Shown: positions 2,828-39,746 of the stretch, piece after piece
Numbering within the stretch: the stretch's first letter is position 1
How the letters are laid out: every line of letters starts with the position of its first letter
Source of the DNA: Escherichia phage 21
Direction: 5' to 3' (one strand)
Sequence record: OL657228.1
DNA: 42,931 nt
Program-made: the position numbers and the translations under genes
Notes under the pieces: generated by a model
The model's database searches: none
Seen by the model: only the letters and a program-made list of their open reading frames with translations
What the model was told of the DNA's origin: nothing

Positions 2828-4416
2828 AACGAACGCCTGTCCTGATTGATGTGAACGGCGTTCCGCTTCGTGAGAGTCTCAGCTACAACGGGGGCGGTGC
2901 AGGATTTGGCGGGCAAATGGCTGAGTGGTTGCCACCGGCGCAGAGTGCCGATGCGGCCCTGCTGCCCGCGTTGCGTCTGGGGAATGCCCGGGCAGATGAT
3001 CTGGTGCGCAATAACGGAATAGCGGCTAATGCGGTGGCTCTGCATAAGGATCACATTGTCGGGCATATGTTTCTGATCAGCTACCGTCCGAACTGGCGCT
3101 GGCTGGGGATGCGGGAGACCGCAGCAAAAAGCTTTGTCGATGAGGTGGAGGCGGCCTGGTCGGAATACGCCGAAGGGATGTTTGGCGAGATCGACGTGGA
3201 AGGAAAACGCACGTTCACGGAATTTATCCGTGAAGGTGTGGGCGTTCATGCGTTTAACGGCGAAATCTTTGTGCAGCCGGTCTGGGATACGGAAACCACG
3301 CAGTTATTCCGTACGCGTTTTAAAGCCGTGAGTCCGAAACGGGTGGACACGCCTGGACACGGTATGGGGAACCGTTTTCTGCGGGCCGGTGTGGAGGTCG
3401 ATCGATATGGCCGTGCCGTCGCGTACCATATCTGTGAGGATGATTTTCCGTTCTCTGGTAGTGGACGATGGGAACGGATCCCGCGTGAACTTCCCACCGG
3501 GCGTCCGGCCATGCTGCATATTTTCGAGCCGGTGGAGGACGGGCAGACCCGTGGGGCTAATCAGTTTTACAGCGTCATGGAACGGCTGAAGATGCTCGAT
3601 TCCCTGCAGGCAACACAGCTTCAGTCGGCCATAGTGAAGGCGATGTATGCAGCGACGATTGAAAGTGAACTTGATACCGAAAAGGCCTTTGAATATATCG
3701 CCGGCGCGCCACAGGAGCAGAAGGATAATCCGCTTATTAATATTCTGGAGAAGTTTTCCAGCTGGTATGACACGAATAACGTGACACTGGGCGGTGTCAA
3801 AATTCCGCACCTTTTCCCTGGTGATGATCTGAAACTACAGACTGCGCAGGATTCAGACAATGGATTTTCTGCGCTTGAACAGGCGCTGCTGCGGTATATC
3901 GCCGCCGGTCTTGGCGTTTCCTACGAACAGTTGTCCCGTGATTACTCGAAGGTCAGTTACTCAAGTGCCCGCGCCTCCGCCAATGAGTCGTGGCGCTATT
4001 TTATGGGGCGGCGAAAATTTATTGCGGCCCGGCTGGCCACGCAGATGTTTTCCTGCTGGCTGGAAGAGGCACTTCTTCGGGGGATTATTCGTCCGCCACG
4101 GGCACGTTTTGATTTTTATCAGGCGCGATCAGCCTGGTCACGGGCAGAGTGGATTGGTGCCGGAAGAATGGCCATTGACGGGCTCAAGGAAGTCCAGGAA
4201 TCAGTGATGCGCATTGAGGCCGGACTGAGCACGTATGAGAAAGAGCTGGCGCTGATGGGCGAGGATTATCAGGACATTTTCCGCCAGCAGGTCAGGGAAT
4301 CTGCTGAGCGGCAAAAAGCCGGACTCTCACGTCCGGTGTGGATAGAGCAGGCGTATCAGCAGCAGATAGCGGAGAGTCGTAGGCCGGAAGAGGAGACAAC
4401 ACCACGTGAGACGTAA
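2824..4416 (+). CDS. B: portal protein (gpB)
   Basis: Start at MKRTPVLID (ORF-track start +30 nt); high similarity to lambda gpB (FEPVEDGQTRGAN.FYSVME, QTAQDSDNGFSALEQALLRYIAAGLGVSYEQLSR). Confidence 0.92.
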   Translation: MKRTPVLIDVNGVPLRESLSYNGGGAGFGGQMAEWLPPAQSADAALLPALRLGNARADDLVRNNGIAANAVALHKDHIVGHMFLISYRPNWRWLGMRETAAKSFVDEVEAAWSEYAEGMFGEIDVEGKRTFTEFIREGVGVHAFNGEIFVQPVWDTETTQLFRTRFKAVSPKRVDTPGHGMGNRFLRAGVEVDRYGRAVAYHICEDDFPFSGSGRWERIPRELPTGRPAMLHIFEPVEDGQTRGANQFYSVMERLKMLDSLQATQLQSAIVKAMYAATIESELDTEKAFEYIAGAPQEQKDNPLINILEKFSSWYDTNNVTLGGVKIPHLFPGDDLKLQTAQDSDNGFSALEQALLRYIAAGLGVSYEQLSRDYSKVSYSSARASANESWRYFMGRRKFIAARLATQMFSCWLEEALLRGIIRPPRARFDFYQARSAWSRAEWIGAGRMAIDGLKEVQESVMRIEAGLSTYEKELALMGEDYQDIFRQQVRESAERQKAGLSRPVWIEQAYQQQIAESRRPEEETTPRET

Positions 4417-15692: not shown

Positions 15693-18600
15693 ATGGGTAA
15701 AGGCAGCAGTAAGGGGCATACCCCGCGCGAAGCGAAGGACAACCTGAAATCATCCCAGATGCTGAGCGTGATAGACGCCATCAGCGAAGGGCCGGTTGAA
15801 GGTCCGGTGGATGGATTAAAAAGCGTGCTGCTGAACAGTACGCCGGTGCTGGACAGTGAGGGGAATACCAATATATTCGGCGTCACGGTGGTGTTCCGGG
15901 CCGGTGAGCAGGAGCAGACACCGCCGGAGGGATTTGAATCCTCCGGCTCCGAGACGGTGCTCGGTACAGAAGTGAAATATGACACGCCGATCACCCGGAC
16001 CATCACGTCGGCAAACATTGACCGTCTGCGTTTTACTTTCGGCGTGCAGGCACTGGTGGAAACCACCTCAAAGGGGGACAGGAATCCATCGGAAGTCCGC
16101 CTGCTGGTTCAGATTCAACGTAACGGTGGCTGGGTGACGGAAAAAGACATCACCATTAAGGGCAAAACCACGTCGCAGTATCTGGCCTCGGTGGTGGTGG
16201 ATAACCTGCCGCCGCGCCCGTTTAATATCCGGATGCGCAGGATGACGCCGGACAGCACCACAGACCAGTTGCAGAACAAAACGCTCTGGTCGTCATACAC
16301 CGAAATCATCGATGTGAAACAGTGCTACCCGAACACGGCACTGGTCGGCGTACAGGTGGACTCGGAGCAGTTCGGCAGCCAGCAGGTGAGCCGTAATTAT
16401 CATCTTCGCGGGCGCATTCTGCAGGTGCCGTCGAACTATAACCCGCAGACGCGGCAATACAGCGGTATCTGGGACGGAACGTTTAAGCCAGCATACAGCA
16501 ACAACATGGCCTGGTGTCTGTGGGATATGCTGACCCATCCGCGCTACGGCATGGGGAAACGTCTTGGTGCGGCAGATGTGGATAAATGGGCGCTGTATGT
16601 CATCGGCCAGAATTGCGACCAGTCAGTGCCGGACGGCTTTGGCGGCACGGAGCCGCGCATCACCTGTAATGCGTACCTGACCACACAGCGCAAGGCGTGG
16701 GATGTGCTCAGTGATTTTTGCTCGGCGATGCGCTGTATGCCGGTATGGAACGGGCAGACGCTGACATTCGTGCAGGACCGACCGTCGGATAAGGTGTGGA
16801 CCTATAACCGCAGTAATGTGGTGATGCCGGATGATGGCGCGCCGTTCCGCTACAGCTTCAGCGCCCTGAAAGACCGCCATAATGCCGTTGAGGTGAACTG
16901 GATTGACCCGGATAACGGCTGGGAGACGGCGACAGAGCTTGTGGAGGACACGCAGGCCATTGCCCGTTACGGTCGTAACGTCACGAAGATGGATGCCTTT
17001 GGCTGTACCAGCCGGGGGCAGGCACACCGCGCCGGGCTGTGGCTGATTAAAACGGAGCTGCTGGAAACGCAGACCGTGGACTTCAGCGTGGGTGCAGAAG
17101 GGCTTCGCCATGTACCGGGCGATGTCATTGAAATCTGTGATGATGACTATGCGGGGATCAGCATCGGCGGGCGCGTGCTGGCGGTGAACAACCAGACGCG
17201 GACACTGACGCTCGACCGTGAAATCACGCTGCCATCCTCCGGCACCACGCTGATAAGCCTGGCTGACGGACAGGGGAATCCGGTCAGCGTGGAGGTCCAG
17301 TCCGTCACCGACGGCGTGAAGGTAAAAGTGAGCCGTGTTCCTGACGGCGTTGCAGAATACAGCGTGTGGGGGCTGAAGTTGCCAACGTTGCGCCAGCGCC
17401 TGTTCCGCTGTGTGAGTATCCGTGAGAACGATGACGGCACGTATGCCATCACTGCCGTGCAGCATGTACCGGAAAAAGAGGCCATCGTGGATAACGGGGC
17501 GCACTTTGACGGCGACCAGAGCGGCACGGTGAATGGTGTCACGCCGCCAGCGGTGCAGCACCTGACTGCCGAAGTCACCGCAGACAGCGGGGAATATCAG
17601 GTGCTGGCGCGCTGGGACACGCCGAAGGTGGTGAAGGGGGTGAGCTTTATGCTTCGCCTGACCGTGGCAGCGGATGACGGCAGTGAGCGGCTGGTCAGCA
17701 CGGCCCGGACGACGGAAACCACATACCGCTTCAGGCAACTGGCGCCAGGGAACTACAGGCTGACAGTCCGGGCGGTAAATGCGTGGGGGCAGCAGGGCGA
17801 TCCGGCATCGGTATCGTTCCGGATTGCCGCACCGGCAGCGCCGTCGCAGATTGAGCTGACACCGGGGTATTTTCAGATAACCGCCACGCCGCATCTTGCG
17901 GTTTATGATCCGACGGTACAGTTTGAGTTCTGGTTCTCGGAAAAGCGGATTGCGGATATCAGGCAGGTTGAAACCACAGCACGCTATCTTGGCACGGCGC
18001 TGTACTGGATAGCCGCCAGTATCAATATCAAACCGGGCCATGATTATTATTTTTACATCCGCAGTGTGAACACCGTTGGCAAATCGGCATTTGTGGAGGC
18101 TGTTGGCCAGCCGAGTGATGATGCATCCGGCTATCTGAATTTTTTCAAAGGAGAGATAGGGAAAACCCATCTGGCTCAGGAGTTGTGGACGCAGATTGAT
18201 AACGGTCAGCTTGCGCCTGACCTGGCTGAAATCAGGACGTCCATTACGGGTGTCAGCAATGAAATCACGCAGACCGTCAATAAGAAACTGGAAGACCAGA
18301 GTGCAGCGATCCAGCAGATACAGAAGGTTCAGGTTGATACAAATAATAACCTGAACAGCATGTGGGCTGTGAAGCTGCAGCAGATGCAGGACGGACGCCT
18401 TTATATCGCGGGTATTGGTGCCGGTGTTGAGAATACTCCTGACGGTATGCAGAGTCAGGTGCTGCTGGCGGCGGACAGGATTGCGATGATTAATCCTGCG
18501 AATGGCAACACAAAGCCGATGTTTGTTGGGCAGGGCGATCAGATATTCATGAACGAAGTGTTCCTGAAATATCTGACGGCTCCCACCATTACCAGCGGTG

Positions 18601-19175
18601 GCAATCCCCCAACGTTTTCACTGACACCTGATGGTCGACTTTCTGCGAAAAATGCGGATATCAGCGGTAACGTGAACGCGAACTCCGGGACGCTCAACAA
18701 CGTCACGATTAATCAGAACTGTCGGATTCTGGGAAAACTGTCAGCTAACCAGATTGAAGGTGATATTGTCAAAACGGTGGGAAAAGCCTTTCCGAGAAAT
18801 GGCAGTTATGCCAGCGGTACAATAACGGTCACTGTGTACGATGACCAGGCTTTTGACCGTCAGATAGTAGTCCCCCCCGTTCTGTTTCGTGGGGGTAAGC
18901 ATGAAAACTTCAACAGCAACAACCAACAGTCATACTGGTATTCAACCTGTAAGCTGCAGGTACTGAAGAACGGACAGGAAATCTTTCAGCAACCCGCGAC
19001 GGATGTCAGCAGGGTATTTTCATCAGTCATTGATATGCCTGCCGGACACGGCCATGTCACCCTGACTTTCAATGTTTCTTCATATGGTGCTAATAACTGG
19101 ACGCCAACGACCAGTATCAGCGACCTTCTTGTTGTTGTGATGAAGAAATCTACAGCCGGTATCAGTATCAGTTGA
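15693..19175 (+). CDS. J: central tail fibre / host specificity protein J
   Basis: 1160 aa; N-terminal about 950 aa nearly identical to recalled lambda gpJ ([20 protein letters not shown]...); C-terminal about 200 aa recognisably J-like but diverged. Confidence 0.93.
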
Positions 19176-19227: not shown

Positions 19228-21294
19228 GTGAATATGGCAGTACAGATTTCAGGCGTGCTGAAAGACGGTGCAGGAAAACCGATACAGAACTGCACCATTC
19301 AGCTCAAAGCAAAACGTAACAGCACCACGGTTGTGGTGAACACGGTGGCCTCAGAAAATCCGGATGAAGCCGGACGTTACAGCATGGATGTCGAGTATGG
19401 CCAGTACAGCGTTATCCTGCTGGTTGAAGGTTTTCCGCCTTCACATGCCGGGGCCATCACCGTGTATGAGGATTCTAAGCCGGGGACATTGAATGATTTT
19501 CTGGGCGCTGCAACAGAAGATGATGTTCGTCCGGAGGCACTGTATCGTTTTGAAAAGATGGTGGAAGAGGTGGCACGCAACGCTGAAGCCGCCTCTCAGA
19601 GCGCAGCGGCAGCAAAGAAATCAGAAACAGCAGCGGCATCGTCCAGGAATGCGGCGAAAACATCAGAGACGAATGCAGGTAACAGCGCGAAAGCGGCAGC
19701 TTCTTCAAAAACAGCCGCACAAAACGCAGCAACAGCGGCAGAACGTTCAGAGACAAATGCCCGTGCGTCAGAAGAAGCCTCCGCAGACAGTGAAGAGGCT
19801 TCCCGCCGTAATGCAGAGTCAGCCGCTGAAAATGCCGGAGTCGCCACCACAAAAGCGCGGGAGGCCGCAGCAGACGCAACAAAGGCCGGGCAGAAAAAGG
19901 ATGAGGCTCTGTCGGCAGCGACACGGGCTGAAAAGGCGGCAGACCGCGCAGAAGTCGCAGCGGAAGTGACTGCAGAGCCCTATGCGAATATAGTGCCGCC
20001 GCTGCCTGATGTGTGGATACCGTTTAACGATTCACTGGATATGATTGCGGGTTTTTCTCCGGGCTATAAAAAAATAGCTATTGGTGACGATGTGGTTCAG
20101 GTCGCCAGTGATAAACAGGTTAATTTCAGTCGCGCATCAACGGCAACATATATCAACAAATCTGGCGAACTGAAAACGGCGGAAATTAATGAGCCGCGAT
20201 TTGAGTGTGATGGCCTGCTTATTGAGGGACAAAGAACGAACTACATGCTCAATTCGGAAAGTCCAGCCAGCTGGGGGAAGTCATCAAACATGGATGTGCC
20301 CGAAACCGGGACAGATAGTTTTGGTTTTACTTATGGAAAGTTTGTCTGCAACGATTCTCTGGTTGGGCAAACTTCGGCTATTAATATGGCATCAATTGCT
20401 GCAACAAAGTCAGTTGATGTCTCAGGCGATAACAAGTACGTGACAACCTCATGCCGTTTTAAAACAGAACGACAGGTAAGGTTACGTATACGGTTTGATA
20501 AGTATGATGGTAGTGCAACAACTTTTCTTGGCGATGCGTACATTGATACGCAAACGCTTGAAATTAATATGACAGGTGGGGCTGCCGGCAGAATTACGGC
20601 ACGAGTCAGGAAGGATAAGACCACAGGCTGGATTTTTGCAGAGGCAACGATTCAGGCAATTGATGGTGAGTTAAAAATAGGCTCTCAGATACAGTATTCT
20701 CCTGAGCGGGGTGGGGCAACAGTATCTGGTGACTATATTTATCTTGCCACCCCACAAGTAGAGAATGGGCCGTGTGTATCATCATTTATTATTTCAGGAG
20801 GCAGCGCAACGACAAGAGCCAGTGATTTGGTTAGTATCCCCACCAGAAATAATCTTTATAAGTTACCATTTACTTTTTTACTTGAGATTCATAAAAACTG
20901 GGATATTGCACCAAACGCCGCACCCCGCGTGTGGGATATAGCAGCAGCCAATACCGGGCAATCAGCAATTGCAGCAATCAACAGAGGTAGTGGTAAGTTA
21001 TATATGAGTCTGTCAAACCCTTCAGGCTTGTATGTTAATAGCGCAGCGACAGATGTATTTGCAGAGAAAACCACATTTGGATGTATTGCAAAAGCTGATG
21101 GTCACTTTCATGTGGTGACAAATGGTAAAGCGGTTAATGAAGTTTATTGTGAATATAATGGTGTGACCGCTGATAAAAATATCCGATTTGGAGGGCAGAC
21201 GAATACTGGAGAACGACATCTGTTTGGCCATATTCGCAATTTCCGCATATGGCATAAAGAATTAAATGACAGGCAATTAAAAGAGGTCGTATGA
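19228..21294 (+). CDS. stf: side tail fibre protein (Stf-like N-terminus, unrelated C-terminal domain)
   Basis: 688 aa; first about 90 aa near-identical to lambda Stf (MAVQISGVLKDGAGKPIQNCTIQLKA...), then an Ala/Ser/Glu-rich repetitive shaft, then a C-terminal half from about aa 250 with no Stf similarity and visibly lower GC. Confidence 0.8.
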   Translation: MNMAVQISGVLKDGAGKPIQNCTIQLKAKRNSTTVVVNTVASENPDEAGRYSMDVEYGQYSVILLVEGFPPSHAGAITVYEDSKPGTLNDFLGAATEDDVRPEALYRFEKMVEEVARNAEAASQSAAAAKKSETAAASSRNAAKTSETNAGNSAKAAASSKTAAQNAATAAERSETNARASEEASADSEEASRRNAESAAENAGVATTKAREAAADATKAGQKKDEALSAATRAEKAADRAEVAAEVTAEPYANIVPPLPDVWIPFNDSLDMIAGFSPGYKKIAIGDDVVQVASDKQVNFSRASTATYINKSGELKTAEINEPRFECDGLLIEGQRTNYMLNSESPASWGKSSNMDVPETGTDSFGFTYGKFVCNDSLVGQTSAINMASIAATKSVDVSGDNKYVTTSCRFKTERQVRLRIRFDKYDGSATTFLGDAYIDTQTLEINMTGGAAGRITARVRKDKTTGWIFAEATIQAIDGELKIGSQIQYSPERGGATVSGDYIYLATPQVENGPCVSSFIISGGSATTRASDLVSIPTRNNLYKLPFTFLLEIHKNWDIAPNAAPRVWDIAAANTGQSAIAAINRGSGKLYMSLSNPSGLYVNSAATDVFAEKTTFGCIAKADGHFHVVTNGKAVNEVYCEYNGVTADKNIRFGGQTNTGERHLFGHIRNFRIWHKELNDRQLKEVV

Positions 21295-21569
21295 AAGATT
21301 TAACTTTGAAGTTTCATGACAAACTGCAGTTTAAGGCCTTCCTGTCATCTCTTGACTGGGAGGAGGATGAAGACCTCCAGAATAAACTGTTAGTCGATGA
21401 AATTGGTTTCACCTACACAGAAACAGGGGTAACAGAAGAGGGAGAACCTGTCTGTGTCCGGAATGACGGTTATTTTGTCAACATTCGCATTCTTGATGAC
21501 TTGTTTGATGTTTCTGTATTCTCTGATTATGTCGTGGAGCTGGAAACACCGCTTCGGGAATGGAGCTGA
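21291..21569 (+). CDS. hypothetical small acidic protein, start overlapping the tail fibre stop (ATGA)
   Basis: 92 aa, about 25% Asp+Glu; start overlaps the stf stop, suggesting coupled translation; no family recognised. Could be a fibre chaperone or something else. Confidence 0.45.
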   Translation: MKDLTLKFHDKLQFKAFLSSLDWEEDEDLQNKLLVDEIGFTYTETGVTEEGEPVCVRNDGYFVNIRILDDLFDVSVFSDYVVELETPLREWS

Positions 21570-21581
21570 AAGGAGGAAATA

Positions 21582-21875
21582 ATGGATATAAGCCCCTTAC
21601 TTCATGCGCTTTGTGCTGTGGCTGCGCAGATACTGGTTGGTCTTTTTACCGGAAACTGGGCTTACGGAGCGATAGCCGGTTGTACGTTCTTCATTGCGCG
21701 TGAACATACCCAGGCAGAATATCGCTGGATTGAAATGTTCGGGCATGGCAAGCGAATGAATATGCCGTGGTGGGGCGGTTTTGATCCGCGAGCTTGGGAT
21801 GTGGCAAGCCTGATGGATTTTGCTGTGCCGGTGGTGGCGTGTCTGCTGGTCTGGCTGTTGGTTAATCGTGGGTGA
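21582..21875 (+). CDS. hypothetical small membrane protein
   Basis: 97 aa with two hydrophobic segments (LLHALCAVAAQILVGLF and FAVPVVACLLVWLLV); SD-like GGAGG upstream; no family recognised. Confidence 0.45.
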   Translation: MDISPLLHALCAVAAQILVGLFTGNWAYGAIAGCTFFIAREHTQAEYRWIEMFGHGKRMNMPWWGGFDPRAWDVASLMDFAVPVVACLLVWLLVNRG

Positions 21876-21966
21876 AAAAAGGTGAGCTGTATATGCAACG
21901 GAGGAAGAAACCCCGTTGCTGGAAGCCAGGAAAAAGTATCGGGTGTTGCTGTCCTCGGATGTTGTG

Positions 21967-22824
21967 CTAATTGGGTGATAACAGATCCTGTGTATGGGAG
22001 TTTCCCTTTTTGCGTGCGTTGATGCTGGTAACGGCAAACGTCATGATGAACAAAACCGCGAATAAGACGACAATCGTCGGAGCTGGTGCGCTGTCGATAA
22101 AAAAGGACAACCAGACACCAGTCATTGACACTATTACCGATATGCCAGTCGCCAGTAGGAGCGCAATATGAAAGCGTTGTGTCAGGAGTACCGCAATGGC
22201 GCCAGGCGCAATGAGCAGAGAAATGGAGAGAATGATACCTACCGCTTTCAGCGTCGCCACAATGGTCAGAGAGACCATGCACAGCAGCCCATAATGCAGC
22301 CATCTCGTATGCAAACCGCTTACCTGCGCCTGTTGATAATCAAAGCTGAACAGCAAAAAATCCCGCCATTTTACGCTAATAACAAGTGTAACCAGCCCGG
22401 CAATAATCATCGTCTGGATTATATCGCCGATGGTTATCCCGAGCATGTCGCCGAAAAGAATATGGTCAAGATGTACGTCTGGTTTGACTGCAATATACAA
22501 GATCAGACCTGCGGCAAACATGCCAGAAAAAACAATCCCCATCACTGTATCTTGCTTGATTCGGCTGTTGTCTTTCAGGTATCCCGTCGCCACCGCGCAG
22601 AATACTCCGGCGACGAATGCCCCTGTAGCCAAAGGTAACCCCAGAATCCAGGCAAGCACGATTCCAGGAAAAACCGCATGACTCATCGCGTCACCCATCA
22701 GTGCCCAACCTTTCAGGACCAGAAAGACCGACAGCAGCGCACAGGGTATGGAAACTACCAGTGAAATCAGCAGTGCGTGACTCATAAAGGTGAACTGCAG
22801 TGGCTCCAGTAATAATGCCATCAT
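21967..22824 (-). CDS. sitD: Mn/Fe ABC transporter permease SitD
   Basis: 285 aa polytopic membrane protein, paralogous to the adjacent SitC and last gene of the four-gene minus-strand operon. Confidence 0.85.
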   Translation of the reverse strand: MMALLLEPLQFTFMSHALLISLVVSIPCALLSVFLVLKGWALMGDAMSHAVFPGIVLAWILGLPLATGAFVAGVFCAVATGYLKDNSRIKQDTVMGIVFSGMFAAGLILYIAVKPDVHLDHILFGDMLGITIGDIIQTMIIAGLVTLVISVKWRDFLLFSFDYQQAQVSGLHTRWLHYGLLCMVSLTIVATLKAVGIILSISLLIAPGAIAVLLTQRFHIALLLATGISVIVSMTGVWLSFFIDSAPAPTIVVLFAVLFIMTFAVTSINARKKGNSHTQDLLSPN

Positions 22825-23678
22825 GAGCGATCCTCCAGCGCCTTATGCGCACGCCGACGATTTGCCAAAAGCCCATGGGTGGGCGCAAAGACAAATGCTA
22901 AAAGAAACAGCAGTGTCTGCGCCACCACGATGATTCCACCTGTCGCGCCGTCCAGAAAGTAACTGACCCACGCGCCGAGGAAACTGGTCACACTGCCAAT
23001 AGTTACAGCAATCATGAGCAGGCGGGGAAAACGATCGGTTAACAACCATGCTGTTGCACCGGGAGTCACCACCAGACAGATCACCAGAAAGGCACCAACC
23101 GTTTGCAGCGCCGCAACGGTCGAAACCGACAGCAGGGTGAAGAAGATGAGTTTTAATCTGCCCGGATGCAATCCAATAGCACGGGCGTGATTCTCGTCGA
23201 AAAAGGTCACCATAAGATCTTTCCATTTGAAAAAAAGCACGATGATCGAGAGAATGCCAATGATAGTGAGTTGCAGGATATCCGCCGGATCGATTGCCAG
23301 AATATTGCCCAGGACGATGGTCTGAATGTTCACAGATGTCGGGTTCAATGACACCATAAACAGCCCCAGGCCAAAAAAGGACGAGAAGATCAGACCGATG
23401 ATGGCATCTTCTTTTAAGCGGGTGCGTTGGTTAAGAAACAGCATGCTGCCCGCAGCCAGTCCGCCGGAAAAGAAGGCTCCCAGAGAAAACGGAAGCCCCA
23501 GCATATATGCCCCCGCAACACCCGGGACAATAGAGTGCGACAACGCATCGCCAATCAGCGACCAGCCTTTTAGCATCAGATAGCATGACAGGAAAGCGCA
23601 GAGACCGCCGACCATCGCCGAGACCCACATCGCATTGAGCATATATTCATAGCTGAAGGGTTCCAGTAGCACGTTCAT
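22821..23678 (-). CDS. sitC: Mn/Fe ABC transporter permease SitC
   Basis: 285 aa polytopic membrane protein with ABC-3 permease character; overlaps sitB and sitD by 4 nt. Confidence 0.85.
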
Positions 23679-24502
23679 CTTTCTTCCCTCTGCACCGCTG
23701 ACGGTCGATGAGCCACAAAAGGGCGTTCATCGTCAGTAATAATGCTTTCTTCCGAGCCGTTAAGTGTGACATGGCGCAGTACGCCGCTAAAAGCCAGCTC
23801 TAGGTTCTCGGCTGTAAAAGTGGTGTCTGTCGGCCCGCTTGCCAGGACGGTGCCTTTGACCATGACCGTATAATCGCAAAATGTCGTGACGGATCCGAGA
23901 TTGTGTGTTGAGACAAGCATCGTTTTGCCTTCCGCGCGTAACTCCCTCAACAGGCTGATGATTTTGGCTTCGGTTTTCACATCAACGCCAGTAAAAGGTT
24001 CATCCAGCAGGATCACATCACCCTGCTGTGCAATCGCTCTCGCCAGAAAGACGCGTTTCTTTTGTCCACCGGAAAGCTCGCCGATTTGTCGATGGCGAAA
24101 ATTCACCATATCGACACGTTCCAGCGCATCGGTGACAATTTGACGATCCCTCTTTTTGGCGATACGCAACATACCCATATGCCCATAGCGGCCCATCATC
24201 ACCACATCTTCCACCAGTACAGGAAATGACCAGTCAACATCTTCTGACTGAGGGACGTAGGCAACCAGGTTTTTCTGTAACGCCTGTCGCGTGGGAATAC
24301 CCAGAACAGATATCTTTCCGCTGGTCAGACGCACAAATCCCATAATCGCTTTAAACAACGTCGATTTTCCGGAACCGTTTACCCCAACCAGAGCGGCAAT
24401 AGATCCACTTGGTACTGTGAAGGATGCATCGCGCAGTGCTGTGTGCCCGTTACGCCAGGTGACAGTAACATCATTAACGACAATGCCTGCAGATTGCATC
24501 AT
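23675..24502 (-). CDS. sitB: Mn/Fe ABC transporter ATP-binding protein SitB
   Basis: Walker [13 protein letters not shown] signature LSGGQKKRV, Walker B ILLDEP. Confidence 0.9.
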
Positions 24503-25416
24503 TATTTCTCCCTTTTCCCAGCTTTAATTCCCTGTACCAGCGTACTGGTAGTAACCTTAAGAAGGTCGATATACGTCGGTACCGGGCCGTTTTCTGTGCT
24601 CAGGGAATCGACATAGAGCACACCGCCGTAGTGTGCGCCGGTTTCACGCGCAACCTGACGCGCTGGTTTATCGGAAATCGTACTCTCGCTAAAGACTGCC
24701 GGGATATGATTTTTCTTAACTATATCAACAACCTTACGTACCTGCTGCGGTGTTCCTTGTTGATCGGCATTAATCGGCCACAGATAAAGCTCTTTTAGCC
24801 CCAAATCGCGTGCGAGATAAGAAAAAGCCCCTTCACTGGTGACCATCCATCGCTGATTCTCAGGGAGTTCCGTAATCTGCTTACGCAGGGGGGCAAGGGT
24901 TTGGGTAATCTTGGCTTTATAAGTATCGGCATTGCGTTGGTAGGTTTGTGCATTTGCCGGATCGTATTTTATCAACGCATCACGAATATTATCGACGTAA
25001 ATCAGAGCATTATCTGGCGACATCCATGCATGGGGGTTAGGTTTGCCCTCATAGGGTCCTTCGGTGATCCCTACAGGCGTCACACCCGAAGAGACAATTA
25101 CTTCTGGAACCCCATTGAGATGCTGGTAAAAGCGTTGGAACCACAATTCCAGATTCATACCATTGGCGAGAATCAGTTGTGCCCCCTGCGCACGTTTAAT
25201 ATCGCCAGGGGTAGGCTGATACTCATGAATTTCTGCACCAGGCCTGGTTATGGATGAGACTTCTGCAGCATCTCCCGCCACGTTTTTGGCCATATCCGCG
25301 ATGATGGTAAATGTTGTAATGACCTTGAATTTTTCAGTTGCACTTGCCTGAAATGCGATCGAGCAGGTGAGTGCGAGGCCCCCCAAGAGCATGGTTACTT
25401 TTTTTATTGAGTGCAT
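24502..25416 (-). CDS. sitA: periplasmic Mn/Fe-binding protein SitA
   Basis: 304 aa with N-terminal signal peptide ([26 protein letters not shown]); first gene of the operon; resembles cluster A-I metal-binding proteins. Confidence 0.88.
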
Positions 25417-25448
25417 AATTTAGTACCTATAGTGAGCAAAATTAGAAC

Positions 25449-25470
25449 AAACATAGCAACGGCTATGTTT
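25449..25470. promoter_or_regulatory. candidate MntR box upstream of sitA
   Basis: Perfect inverted repeat AAACATAGC-aacg-GCTATGTTT about 35 bp upstream of the sitA start, matching the MntR operator as I recall it (approximate coordinates). Confidence 0.7.
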
Positions 25471-25492
25471 TATAGCACAACCTATACAAAAT

Positions 25493-25511
25493 GAAAATGA
25501 TTATCATTAGC
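25493..25511. promoter_or_regulatory. candidate Fur box upstream of sitA
   Basis: GAAAATGATTATCATTAGC resembles the Fur consensus GATAATGATAATCATTATC; adjacent to the MntR box (approximate coordinates). Confidence 0.65.
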
Positions 25512-25699
25512 AACTTTGAGGCCCAAAACAGGGATTAGGTTGTTTCCTGCTGGCGACGTGTTATTGAGGAAAAAAGTAAGGCAGCTAGTAGGCTTTGAAA
25601 TAACGTTCTGCGGTTGGCTGATGCAATTTCGAGAGTGCATGTATTGAATGATTTCTAGCCGTTACTGATTTTCGTATTTTTTGCATGAGATGATTTGCA

Positions 25700-25990
25700 C
25701 CTCCCCCCACCGAGCCTCCATGACTTTACTCCACTGTCTCTAGGGCTGCTGTGTGCCAGGAGCGGAAGCAGGGGGGCCAGAGACTCCTTAAAAGTTGATA
25801 GCTCGTTTTGCAGGGAGACTTACACGGTAAGCGTTATTCCGAAGAGCTTAAAATTGAAGCAGTCAAACGGGTTGTTGAGCGTGTTTATGCGCTGCCATCT
25901 GATTAATCGACGGAAGCAGTTCCGTTTGGTCTATGATGCAGTTGTCCGGCAGGCGCTCTGTGACGCAAAAGAACGATAGGAGTAGCATTG
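25700..25990 (+). mobile_element. probable IS3-family insertion sequence remnant (orfA N-terminal fragment, disrupted)
   Basis: A short frame translating to ...GKRYSEELKIEAVKRVVER resembles IS3-family OrfA HTH N-termini but has no start and is bounded by stop codons; no intact transposase follows. Confidence 0.4.
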
Positions 25991-26114
25991 AAGTGAACGA
26001 GGTTATGCTTGTCTTATATTATCCTCTATTTTAAAAACATCAGCTGGTTGTGTAAGAGTTTTTATTGTTTTATCTTGTTGACTTTGCTTTTATGAAAACA
26101 GAGTGATTGATACA

Positions 26115-26873
26115 ATGAAAACCTTAAGTGGGAAAGAGTTTAGGAAATTATTTAATCGTTATGAGACAGGATTCTATCTAAGTGAGTTTGAATACTTAAA
26201 GGACTTTGATCCTTTGTTTCCTGAATGCGTAGGGAAAGAATTAAAGTTGGGTTATAAACGAAAAGTTGATGTATGGTGCGAAGAGGATGCTGCGCTATAT
26301 GCAGAATTTATAGCTACAAAAGAAAGGCTGAAAAGAGGCCGGTTAATCCTAAAAATAAACCAAGTGTGGTCGCGTGTATATCCTGCTTATATTTATGCAA
26401 TTGAAGAAAGAATAAATGTCAGGGCAAAGGGGAGAGAGTCATTTAAGTATGAAACTGTGCAAGAAAAACAATGTAAACTTTCCATAATGTTAGATGGTCT
26501 GAAAGACCTTGAATGTGAAATAGCTATGATTTCAAGTGAGTTTGAAATTGAAAAACACTCTATGCACTATTTTTATATGATTTTTGATATTGAACGCTAT
26601 ATAAATGACTGCAGTTACTTTGTTTTTTCTGCTGCTAAAGTTGTTAAAGGCGTGATTCAATGCATTGGTTACATTGACAAAAATAACAAAGCAAGTTGCG
26701 ATGAATTTTATTCAGGCAGCTATGAATGCTTGGATGATGATCAGGAAACACTGAACTATTTAAATGAATCATGCGCAGAGGGTATAGACGCTGATAAAGA
26801 TCTCATCAGGAAGAATGAGTTATTAGCCTTATCCCTGAAGGAATTGTATCAACTTCTCGTTTCAAAAAAATAA
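26115..26873 (+). CDS. hypothetical protein, AT-rich orphan cargo gene (no recognisable family)
   Basis: ORF track 26103..26873; probable ATG at 26115 (MKTLSGKEF). Visibly AT-rich, Lys/Glu-rich with 9 Cys; TTGACT -35-like hexamer about 30 bp upstream; lies between the IS remnant and attP. Confidence 0.6.
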   Translation: MKTLSGKEFRKLFNRYETGFYLSEFEYLKDFDPLFPECVGKELKLGYKRKVDVWCEEDAALYAEFIATKERLKRGRLILKINQVWSRVYPAYIYAIEERINVRAKGRESFKYETVQEKQCKLSIMLDGLKDLECEIAMISSEFEIEKHSMHYFYMIFDIERYINDCSYFVFSAAKVVKGVIQCIGYIDKNNKASCDEFYSGSYECLDDDQETLNYLNESCAEGIDADKDLIRKNELLALSLKELYQLLVSKK

Positions 26874-27203
26874 CAAGTAATACGGCGAGCGATATGACGT
26901 GCCATGGGATATCCGCACCCAGCAGCATGTTGTCTCCACGATGTCCGCAGTTCGCTCATAATAGACATTCACTACAGTTATAGTAGAAGGTATGCATGCT
27001 GCTGAGTGGGGAAAGTGTGAAAGAAAAGAAGACAGCTGCTTTGTTTGTCGTCACGTTTATCTTCATTGGCTATGCAAGTCGTAATACAAGGCGGGACAAA
27101 ACTGAGACACATAAGGCCTCGCAATGGCTTGCAAGGCCACACATGTATTGAGATGTTAATAAAATGTAGACTTGTAATTTTGATATAAATGGTAGAGAAA
27201 ATC

Positions 27204-27214
27204 TTTCCCCAAAA
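27204..27214 (+). repeat. arm-type integrase binding site (P arm), TTTCCCCAAAA
   Basis: Same motif as the three tandem copies at 27565..27600 (approximate coordinates). Confidence 0.6.
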
Positions 27215-27332
27215 TAAAAACGAACGTCAATGAAATCAAACGGTTGAATAAAGTTGATTTTGGCTAATACAAAGACAAGAAAATAATATTTATGATTAAA
27301 TATCAGCGAGTTGAATACATAATTTTTATATA

Positions 27333-27497
27333 CTGCTGCGCCATATGGGCTGGACTGAAGCCGCAGACCTGATTGTTAAAGGTATGGAAGGCGCAATCAA
27401 CGCCAAGACCGTAACCTATGACTTCGAACGTCTGATGGAAGGCGCTAAACTGCTGAAATGCAGCGAGTTTGGTGACGCGATCATCAAAAATATGTAA
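27333..27497 (+). other. icd': phage-borne icd 3' end (replacement C-terminus of isocitrate dehydrogenase)
   Basis: In-frame translation ...[54 protein letters not shown] is the Icd C-terminus with a few substitutions, followed by a hairpin terminator (ACGGGCGT...ACGCCCGT, about 27520..27545). Confidence 0.85.
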
Positions 27498-27564
27498 TTA
27501 CCACATGTGTTAAATATTATAACGGGCGTATAACACGCCCGTTGTTTTATGATGATGTAAAATC

Positions 27565-27610: not shown

Positions 27611-28753
27611 CTATGCTGTTTTGATATCTACGATAATCCAGTCTTTACCACGATCATCATTGTATCGGTCGGTCATTTTTCTGGATTTATGGCCTAACAA
27701 CTTTTGCGTATCCAGACCCTGTTCCCGATATAATCGTTCTGACAGAGATCGCTGTTCATGAAATGTGGGCGCAGTTCCTTGCTCCCATTTTATGCCACAT
27801 TTTTCCTTGGCCTTTTTAAAAGCCGTTGTCAGAGTATTTGCAGAAACCTGGTCTCCTCTGTTTGCTTGAGAGGTAGTGTGACGGTAATGGACCAGATATT
27901 TACTAACAACAGCATCCCTGCACTGAGATATAACTTCACGAAGGGTAATATTCAGAGCATCGCATTTCAGGTTAAGCGGAATAGCAAGTTTTGAACCGGT
28001 TTTTTCCTGAGTAATGTGCAACATGTCGTCCCATATATCAGAGAATTTCAAATTGCAGATATCGCCTAAACGTTGTCCAGTAACAAGAGCAAGTAGCATG
28101 CCGCATTTTAAATAGGGCTGCCGTCTGCTTACGCTTTCAAATATTGCCTGCCATTCGAGCAGTGACAATCTTTGGCGGTTTACTCGATTTCGCGGTTGTT
28201 TTGTTGCCTGCGCTGGGTTAAATCCTGGCGGAACATGTCCTGCGTGTTGTGCTTCTTTGAAGACGTCGATCAACACCATTCTCACGACTTGCGCCATCCT
28301 GTTATGACCTTCAGCCTTTACAGCATCAATTATTTCGGCAATATCAAGTGCGGTAATATCCTTGAGGTGTTGCATTCCACAATGCTCACGGAAAAGACGA
28401 ATGGGTTTGCCTTTTTGCCGATAGGAGTTGGGTCTTAGTTCATTATGTTGCAGCCTGTCCTCCTGGATAGAAATATATTTATCAAGCCATTCTGTCACCG
28501 TAATGTCTGAGCGCCTGCCTTTCATTCTTTCCAGACGCTCATTGACGCTTAATATTTGTCTGGTACGTTGTTCAGCAATAATGGTATTTGCTTCAGTAGC
28601 AACTTGTTTTGCTTCATTCTCATCAGTTCCTAAGCTATGAAAACGACCGGATAGTGGATGTTTGTATTGCCAATATACCTTTCCGGTTCGCTTATCTAAT
28701 TTGCAATATAAATTGGGTATAGAGATTTTGTGAGATCGGGGTCTAGCAGCCAT
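27611..28753 (-). CDS. int: tyrosine integrase (lambda-type, icd-targeting)
   Basis: 380 aa; N-terminal arm-binding-like domain, C-terminal catalytic region with ...HEQRSLSERLY...LLGHKSRKMTDRY (R..H..R..Y); adjacent to attP and xis. Confidence 0.92.
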   Translation of the reverse strand: MAARPRSHKISIPNLYCKLDKRTGKVYWQYKHPLSGRFHSLGTDENEAKQVATEANTIIAEQRTRQILSVNERLERMKGRRSDITVTEWLDKYISIQEDRLQHNELRPNSYRQKGKPIRLFREHCGMQHLKDITALDIAEIIDAVKAEGHNRMAQVVRMVLIDVFKEAQHAGHVPPGFNPAQATKQPRNRVNRQRLSLLEWQAIFESVSRRQPYLKCGMLLALVTGQRLGDICNLKFSDIWDDMLHITQEKTGSKLAIPLNLKCDALNITLREVISQCRDAVVSKYLVHYRHTTSQANRGDQVSANTLTTAFKKAKEKCGIKWEQGTAPTFHEQRSLSERLYREQGLDTQKLLGHKSRKMTDRYNDDRGKDWIIVDIKTA

Positions 28754-32605: not shown

Positions 32606-32738
32606 TCTTTGGGACTCCTGGCTGATTAAGTATGTCGATAAGGCGTTTCCATCCGTCACGTAATTTACGGGTGATTCGTTCAAGTAAAGATTCGGAAGGG
32701 CAGCCAGCAACAGGCCACCCTGCAATGGCATATTGCAT
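32574..32738 (-). CDS. cIII: CIII (FtsH/HflB inhibitor)
   Basis: 54-aa frame [54 protein letters not shown], identical to lambda CIII as recalled. Confidence 0.92.
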   Translation of the reverse strand: MQYAIAGWPVAGCPSESLLERITRKLRDGWKRLIDILNQPGVPKNGSNTYGYPD

Positions 32739-32810
32739 GGTGTGCTCCTTATTTATACATAACGAAAAACGCCTCGAGTGAAGCGTTATTGGTATGCGGT
32801 AAAACCGCAC

Positions 32811-34254: not shown

Positions 34255-34905
34255 TTAAGGAAGGTTTGCTAGCTTGGCATCAACGACAACGCCAATGATT
34301 TTACAGTTCCCATTGATTTCAATCATTGGGTATTGTGGATTGAGTGGTTTCAGGAATTTTCTACCGGCATCAATAACTAACTTTTTGAATGTCGCCTCGT
34401 TTTCTCCTTCAAGTTTGGCGACTACCAGCTTTCCATTACGTGGTTCGACTTCTGGGTCGACGAGAATAATCATCCCCTCAGGAATACTCAGTCCTGCCGG
34501 GGCAGTCATTGAATCGCCTTTAACGTCGAGCCAAAAAGAGTCTTCAGAACAATCTACCGTTGTGTCGTACCAGTTATCTATTGCACGCCTATGATATGGC
34601 TCTACAGCTTCCATCCAACATCCTGCGCTTACCCAACTAATTAGAGGATACGAACCTCTTGGATCATGCCTGCTGTGATAGGCAATGTTTGAAAGACTAT
34701 CCTCTCCTTTCAACAGGTAATCAGGGGAGCACTGCAAAGCCTTGGCTAAGGCCAATAGGTTTTCGCCATTGGGCTCAGTTTCAGATCGCTCCCATTGGGA
34801 AATAGCAACATTAGACACGCCAACCATCTTGCCAAGGGCAGCCTGCCTAATCTTGAGTTCTTTTCTGCGAGCGCGAATACGCTCACCCATCAGTTGTGTA
34901 TTCAT
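34255..34905 (-). CDS. cI: CI-type prophage repressor (HTH plus S24 autopeptidase domain)
   Basis: 216 aa; N-terminal HTH (IRQAALGKMVGVSNVAISQWE), C-terminal LexA-like domain with GDSM serine and downstream lysine; divergent from cro. Confidence 0.9.
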   Translation of the reverse strand: MNTQLMGERIRARRKELKIRQAALGKMVGVSNVAISQWERSETEPNGENLLALAKALQCSPDYLLKGEDSLSNIAYHSRHDPRGSYPLISWVSAGCWMEAVEPYHRRAIDNWYDTTVDCSEDSFWLDVKGDSMTAPAGLSIPEGMIILVDPEVEPRNGKLVVAKLEGENEATFKKLVIDAGRKFLKPLNPQYPMIEINGNCKIIGVVVDAKLANLP

Positions 34906-39590: not shown

Positions 39591-39665
39591 GGGTCAGTCG
39601 TATAAAGGTCATTACGGAAGGCTGTTAACCTTCTTATCGTGGTTCGAGTCCACGCTGTCCCGCCA
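39591..39665 (+). tRNA. tRNA-like gene, anticodon GUU (Asn) by hand folding, atypical D-arm
   Basis: 75 nt by hand fold: acceptor GGGTCAG/CTGTCCC (one mismatch), anticodon stem GGAAG/CCTTC with loop CUGUUAA, T-arm CGTGG-TTCGAGT-CCACG, 3' CCA encoded (approximate coordinates). Confidence 0.55.
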
Positions 39666-39670
39666 AACAT

Positions 39671-39746
39671 GCTGGTTTAGCTCCAATGGTAGAGCAGTCG
39701 CCTTGTAAGCGAATGGGTAGCGGTTCAAGTCCGTTAACCAGCACCA
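39671..39746 (+). tRNA. tRNA-like gene, anticodon UGU (Thr) by hand folding
   Basis: About 76 nt: acceptor GCTGGTT/AACCAGC, D-arm TAGCTCCAATGGTAGAGCA, anticodon loop CUUGUAA, T-loop TTCAAGT, 3' ACCA (approximate coordinates; anticodon assignment tentative). Confidence 0.55.

Follow-up and report, generated by a model that had tools for sequence, protein, structure and literature searches.

The importers SitABCD of Salmonella, encoded on Salmonella pathogenicity island 1 (SPI-1), and YfeABCD of Yersinia pestis are orthologous four-gene manganese/iron transporters of the ATP-binding cassette (ABC) type, and both are encoded at fixed chromosomal loci rather than on phages. Uptake of Mn2+ and Fe2+ by Sit, with transport constants, is known for the homologues of avian pathogenic Escherichia coli (APEC), Shigella, and Salmonella (PMC3852070). 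In Salmonella, Shigella, and E. coli, manganese-loaded MntR and iron-loaded Fur repress sitABCD and mntH (review PMC3852070; PMC8970401), and a Salmonella sitA-lacZ fusion was shown to depend on both repressors (PMC8970401); Yersinia lacks MntR, with Fur serving both metals (PMC3852070). A chromosomal pathogenicity island (PAI), "PAI sit", has been described in Shigella flexneri and E. coli (work of Fisher et al., 2009, summarized in PMC7545054), and sitABCD has been statistically associated with extra-intestinal virulence (PMC7592755). The subject of the present analysis is the sitABCD operon of Escherichia phage 21 (sequence record OL657228.1), the whole 42,931-nt sequence of which is referred to below as the window.

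Phage-borne sit operons have been described as well. In a survey of infant-gut isolates, sitABCD "resided on 70% of the lambda phages", and a fur box was reported upstream of these operons (Mathieu et al., 2020; PMC6969025). The operons of lambda-type infant-gut coliphages (Lambda_ev058, ev017, ev207, and 1H12; Jouyvirus and others), of the phage Perceval, and of the PhiR phages of ECOR strains are 99.6-99.7% identical to that of phage 21 and occupy the same slot—that is, after the tail fibre genes and before a 256-aa open reading frame (ORF), an icd fragment, and int—but these coliphages differ from phage 21 in their early, immunity, and lysis regions, which are mosaic. In an LF82 lysogen, sitA-D of the Perceval prophage were found to be transcribed 4-13-fold above the prophage background, and a possible role of sit in macrophages was discussed (Misson et al., 2023; PMC9928086). 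The Perceval operon is 99.6% identical to the phage 21 sit operon, and published expression in a lysogen relates to the Perceval homologue only (PMC9928086). Phage 21 itself was propagated, its virions sequenced, and its genome announced as 42,931 bp with 51% GC and 2 tRNA genes, opened at the sticky ends (GenBank OL657228; Feiss et al., 2022; PMC9119081). The announced sequence is the one analysed here, and the transporter is already annotated in it; the Fur and MntR operators described below are not discussed in the announcement (PMC9119081).

The four genes of phage 21 constitute an intact sitABCD Mn/Fe importer operon. They are arranged in the order A-B-C-D on one strand, with overlaps of 1, 4, and 4 nt at the sitA/sitB, sitB/sitC, and sitC/sitD junctions, respectively, where start and stop codons overlap:

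24502-25416, minus strand: sitA, 304 aa, periplasmic Mn/Fe-binding protein of the ZnuA family
23675-24502, minus strand: sitB, 275 aa, ABC ATPase
22821-23678, minus strand: sitC, 285 aa, inner-membrane permease of the ABC-3 family
21967-22824, minus strand: sitD, 285 aa, inner-membrane permease of the ABC-3 family

All four ORF lengths equal those of the RefSeq sitABCD genes of E. coli CE10, and the operon is therefore free of frameshift and truncation. Nucleotide identity to RefSeq-annotated sitABCD is 99.7% over 3.9 kb. The SitA sequence is identical to UMO75443.1 of Escherichia phage 21, the same protein being present on 21 contigs, and the exact SitB, SitC, and SitD sequences are each present on at least 1000 contigs; these exact matches are named SitA, SitB, SitC, and SitD.

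Domain assignments agree with these names. SitA matches the Pfam family ZnuA (PF01297; 287 bits, residues 32-295), and its N-terminus, read by eye in the translation, is hydrophobic and signal-like, ending in ASA before TE. SitB matches Pfam ABC_tran and, over its full length (1-274), the NCBIfam equivalog NF011630, "manganese/iron ABC transporter ATP-binding protein", with 592.8 bits against a cutoff of 393; a Walker motif, the signature LSGGQ, and the Walker B motif ILLDEP were recognized by eye in its translation. SitC and SitD both match Pfam ABC-3 (PF00950), with 278 and 258 bits, respectively. The preliminary description of this DNA, made from the sequence alone, had proposed a complete sitABCD transporter of four co-directional, overlapping genes—a binding protein with a signal peptide, an ATPase with Walker and signature motifs, and two permeases—that would align with known sitABCD loci and be free of frameshifts, and this was borne out, the signal peptide being a putative one.

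Among solved structures, that of Y. pestis YfeA is nearest to SitA (5uxs, E 1e-124), and cyanobacterial MntC comes next. Residues H64, H129, E195, and D270 of SitA align with H76, H141, E207, and D282 of YfeA, which are reported to be the metal ligands of that protein in the YfeA structure papers. The predicted His-His-Glu-Asp set of SitA fits a Mn/Fe site and not a zinc site.

Upstream of sitA, the sit strand reads ...GCTAATGATAATCATTTTC-attttgtATAGGttgtGCTATaa-AACATAGCcgttGCTATGTTT...ATG, and two operator-like sequences were located in this region:

25493-25511, minus strand: Fur box GCTAATGATAATCATTTTC, a 19-mer matching the consensus GATAATGATAATCATTATC at 17 of 19 positions
25449-25470, no strand: MntR operator-type palindrome AAACATAGC-n4-GCTATGTTT (spacer cgtt), with 0 mismatches, 33 nt before the sitA ATG

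The palindrome is the sole match in the window even when up to three mismatches are allowed (0.03 matches expected), and the Fur-like 19-mer is likewise unique (0.02 expected). The upstream region of E. coli K-12 mntH contains AAACATAGC-n4-GCTATGTTT with identical half-sites (locus L002, positions 3720-3741), and this mntH palindrome is said to have been established as the MntR operator by Patzer and Hantke in 2001. A text search of the literature for the operator sequence together with MntR returned nothing useful. A perfect MntR-box-like palindrome and a Fur-box-like site directly upstream of sitA had been pointed out in the preliminary description, and both were recovered, the coordinates given there being correct. 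They are predicted to be sites for the host MntR and Fur proteins, which would bind here as they do at the homologous promoters.

The conservation of these operators was assessed at sitA loci of other species by scanning 300 nt upstream of each gene. An ATAGC-n4-GCTAT core was found 43-82 nt before the start codon in Salmonella arizonae, Citrobacter, Erwinia amylovora, Phytobacter, Shimwellia, Buttiauxella, Enterobacter, Raoultella, and Pantoea, and when nine Enterobacterales sitA promoters are aligned with that of mntH, neither ATAGC nor GCTAT varies in any column. Several of the Enterobacterales orthologues also have a Fur-like box, which departs from the consensus by 4-6 mismatches and is located 94-105 nt ahead of the start codon. 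In Salmonella, where the S. arizonae SitA is 74% identical to that of phage 21, ATAGC-n4-GCTAT and Fur-like boxes stand at equivalent promoter positions. Neither an MntR-type nor a Fur motif was found in the scanned upstream regions of the Rhizobium, Oceanisphaera, Oceanimonas, and Halomonas orthologues (SitA 68-76% identical), and two Photobacterium loci have a strong Fur-like box at -102 and no MntR-type box. The missing enterobacterial MntR and Fur boxes in the scanned Rhizobium loci are consistent with a different regulator there. Among the loci L023-L082, Rhizobiales, Bartonella, and Brucella contribute many SitA orthologues, with 64-76% identity.

Within E. coli, the ColV-plasmid and CE10 chromosomal alleles have an identical MntR box and retain the Fur box, which differs at 2 positions in the plasmid allele. 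The 200 nt upstream of sitA (25417-25620) fall into distinct allele classes, with about 97% identity in many E. coli chromosomes and about 85% in many plasmids. Because many plasmid alleles are about 85% identical upstream as against about 97% in the coding region, the regulatory region has diverged faster outside the operator boxes.

The operators, as read from the sequence, imply an autonomous sit promoter, for which one candidate can be proposed:

25469-25497, minus strand: candidate sigma-70 promoter, with -35 TTTTCA (25497-25492), a 17-nt spacer, and -10 TATAAA (25474-25469)

In the proposed layout, the Fur box covers the -35 element, and the perfect MntR box extends from within the -10 element across the start. 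Such an arrangement would correspond to the usual layout for steric repression.

A second MntR-like sequence adjoins the perfect one:

25472-25485, no strand: degenerate MntR-like box ATAGG-ttgt-GCTAT (sit strand), with one mismatch, directly upstream of the perfect palindrome

This box falls between the candidate -35 and -10 elements. It is the only other match in the window to ATAGC-n4-GCTAT with at most one mismatch, a count that is not significant by itself (0.88 expected). At the same position, however, a perfect ATAGC-n4-GCTAT is present in five orthologues (Phytobacter, Shimwellia, Raoultella, Buttiauxella, and Enterobacter). Because the degenerate box adjoins the perfect one and its position is conserved in orthologues, a tandem operator was considered. 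The sit promoter might have two adjacent MntR sites at which MntR would bind cooperatively in tandem, together with Fur; the design would be ancestral and possibly still functional, giving a sharper manganese switch than at mntH. This idea is tentative, and we consider it rather doubtful.

The operon is located in a complete lambda-like genome. The lambda cohesive-end 12-mer, GGGCGGCGACCT, stands at the beginning of the window, the last letters of which are ...ACAGGTTACG; the window accordingly runs from cos to cos, and its GC content is 50.8%. The landmarks are as follows:

667-2637: large terminase (TerL), in the lambda gene order
15693-19175: J, in the lambda gene order
19228-21294: side tail fibre gene (stf), to the left of sit
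27345-27497, plus strand: 3' fragment of host icd, adjoining the integrase gene
27611-28753, minus strand: integrase, to the right of sit
32693-32751, minus strand: lambda cIII thermoregulator RNA element (RF01804, full-length match, 88.5 bits)
34255-34905, minus strand: CI-like repressor
39591-39665, plus strand: tRNA Asn-GTT, just upstream of the lysis genes
39671-39746, plus strand: tRNA Thr-TGT, just upstream of the lysis genes

The sit operon occupies the non-essential b region, with the side tail fibre genes on one side and attP/int, of the icd type, on the other; its transcription runs leftward, against that of the neighbouring tail fibre genes. The preliminary description, which had placed the transporter in the b-region of a cos-packaged genome, was right on both counts. 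On the left, sit is flanked by the side tail fibre gene and two small conserved phage ORFs, and on the right by an AT-rich stretch with the 256-aa ORF, the icd 3' fragment, and the integrase gene. The icd fragment beside the integrase gene fits an attachment site in icd, as expected of phage 21 and e14-like elements. The AT-rich stretch (25614-27340) has a GC content of 38.8%, compared with 50.8% overall, and holds the 256-aa ORF (26103-26873, plus strand), which belongs to phrog_20520, of unknown function, and accompanies sit in ev017 and the CE10 chromosome while lying outside the cassette shared with plasmids. Pfam and PADLOC gave nothing credible for the neighbouring ORFs at 26103-26873, 21582-21875, and 21291-21569, and an Rfam search gave no match in the sit region. 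The genome is mosaic: phage PhiR63_2 matches the left arm (1-21900) with 100% identity, and the best match to the right arm (18000-42931) is Jouyvirus ev017, with 87% coverage and 98.3% identity, which has an extra nmpC porin gene and bor, both absent here. One hairpin was noted beyond the end of the operon:

21895-21919, minus strand: hairpin GCAACGGGG...CCUCCGUUGC, between the convergent sitD and a 97-aa phage ORF, a possible weak terminator

The region around it (21876-21970) folds with -20.4 kcal/mol (z -2.0), and the hairpin has no adjacent U run.

Comparison with other replicons allowed the limits of the mobile segment to be drawn:

21940-25613, no strand: mobile sit cassette of about 3.65 kb, the segment in common with pAPEC-O2-ColV (97.3% identity)

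In pAPEC-O2-ColV, a representative of the ColV/IncF virulence plasmids, the same cassette forms a separate allele class at about 97% and, unlike in phage 21, is flanked by plasmid sequence without phage genes. The lambda-like phage HannyBb, which has no sit genes, has only 21571-21951 and 25596-25672 in common with the window, and a DNA-invertase module lies between them; in HannyBb, then, the same slot is filled with other cargo. Neither direct nor inverted repeats were found flanking the cassette, and none of the IS or transposon type, which makes transposition a less likely route of exchange than recombination in the flanking sequence. The 3.9-kb sit region is 99.6-99.7% identical in 26 deposited phage genomes, most of them lambda-type phages from infant-gut E. 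coli or ECOR strains, together with Perceval of LF82. At least 80% of this region is present in 2336 of 5426 complete E. coli genomes, and it is also found, with about 97% identity, on about 1000 plasmids, for the most part IncF/ColV.

In strains of extraintestinal pathogenic E. coli (ExPEC) such as CE10 and Nissle 1917, sit adjoins icd. The CE10 chromosome has a tail fibre remnant, sitDCBA, the 256-aa ORF, and the icd 3' fragment in common with phage 21, and shares 21569-27550 at 99.3% identity, ending just past the icd fragment, as expected of the right end of a decayed prophage of the phage 21 type. Whereas phage 21 is complete and viable, the prophage at these chromosomal loci is decayed or interrupted, a Mu-like prophage and insertion sequence (IS) elements being located upstream in CE10.

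From these observations, it is proposed that sitABCD is very probably an autonomous, host-regulated Mn/Fe importer carried as cargo (a "moron") by phage 21, which would boost the metal uptake and peroxide tolerance of its lysogens. In this cluster A-I ABC importer, SitA would bind Mn2+ or Fe2+ in the periplasm through its His-His-Glu-Asp site, SitC and SitD would form the membrane channel, and SitB would hydrolyse ATP. In a lysogen, sit would be driven by the operon's own promoter, free of control by the phage repressor, with Fe-Fur acting at the box over the candidate -35 element and Mn-MntR at the palindrome (or palindromes) over the candidate -10 element and start region. With Fe-Fur and Mn-MntR loaded, sit would be silent, and expression would rise only under scarcity of iron and manganese, for instance during oxidative stress or in host tissue. 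A second high-affinity Mn/Fe route and better tolerance of peroxide would then be the gain of the lysogen. Transport specificity, repression by Fur and MntR, the contribution to virulence, and expression from a prophage are here carried over from published homologues, and would apply to phage 21 by analogy. The reading of the preliminary description, namely lysogenic conversion for metal uptake, is sound and supported, the phenotype itself being a prediction.

Several points weigh against this proposal. A strict sigma-70 consensus scan of 21500-26200 listed no promoter upstream of sitA; the candidate above is absent from that list because its -10 element ends in A, and it was recognized by eye, matching the consensus at 9 of 12 positions. 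A terminator scan over the same interval did not call the hairpin at 21895-21919 and showed no clear terminator after sitD. In LF82 grown in LB medium, sit expression was modest (PMC9928086). Finally, a literature search found no paper in which a sit-negative strain was lysogenized with a sit phage and conversion measured.

Four other explanations were weighed, all of them much less likely than a host-regulated importer carried as cargo. The first holds that sit is chiefly an auxiliary metabolic function for lytic growth: after induction, N-antiterminated read-through from pL via int would reach the b region, express the operon, and boost Mn/Fe for replication, with conversion being secondary. 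The operon does share the strand of int and the early-left genes, which is the orientation of pL, and no strong promoter or terminator consensus brackets it. However, it has Fur and MntR operators of its own, which are of the host type and are retained in copies outside phages; sit is expressed in uninduced lysogens (PMC9928086); and the cassette also functions where no lytic cycle occurs, namely on plasmids and in decayed prophages. A primarily lytic role is thus considered unlikely.

It could also be argued that the 22-nt palindrome is no protein operator but works at the RNA level, forming a terminator or attenuator hairpin in the sitA leader, since the terminator scan listed a stem of 9 bp closed by a 4-nt loop at this site, with GTTCTAATTT coming next. 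Only 3 of the 9 stem pairs are G-C, however, and ATAGC and GCTAT are invariant across the ten promoters without compensatory changes, which favours a protein-binding site over an RNA hairpin; the terminator-like call was rejected on the ground that the orthologues keep the sequence itself instead of showing covariation. Moreover, the half-sites equal those of the mntH palindrome, MntR repression of sit has been published (PMC3852070), and, with the candidate promoter, much of the palindrome would precede or span the start. We regard an RNA hairpin as very improbable.

That sit is an inert passenger, unexpressed or non-functional in phage 21 lysogens, might be suspected of a phage kept in laboratories since 1961 without selection for sit. 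Yet all four ORFs are full length, the operators are intact, and the encoded proteins are identical to proteins found elsewhere (SitB, SitC, and SitD each on at least 1000 contigs, and SitA on 21), so there is little reason to believe in such a loss of function. A zinc importer of the ZnuABC type, suggested by the Pfam name ZnuA of the SitA domain, is scarcely credible and was rejected, given that the ZnuA, ZnuB, and AztC models score far below their cutoffs, that SitB passes the Mn/Fe equivalog NF011630, that the best structural relatives of SitA are YfeA and cyanobacterial MntC, that its His-His-Glu-Asp residues align with the YfeA residues reported as ligands, and that Fur and MntR boxes are present, no search for a Zur-type box having been made.

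Overall, the presence of an intact sitABCD operon with host Fur and MntR sites as phage 21 cargo is a correct but ordinary finding, already known from the annotation of the phage 21 genome and from the description of lambda-like gut coliphages; the additions of the present analysis are only the second, degenerate MntR-like box and the limits of the cassette. Its value lies in confirmation, and in the reminder that a textbook phage, phage 21, carries sit and could be a convenient tool for a direct conversion experiment. Should the tandem MntR sites prove true, phage 21 would also be a ready-made tool for testing the tandem design. Temperate phages with a metal-uptake operon for virulence and fitness can move sit between gut E. 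coli, a point already made for such phages.

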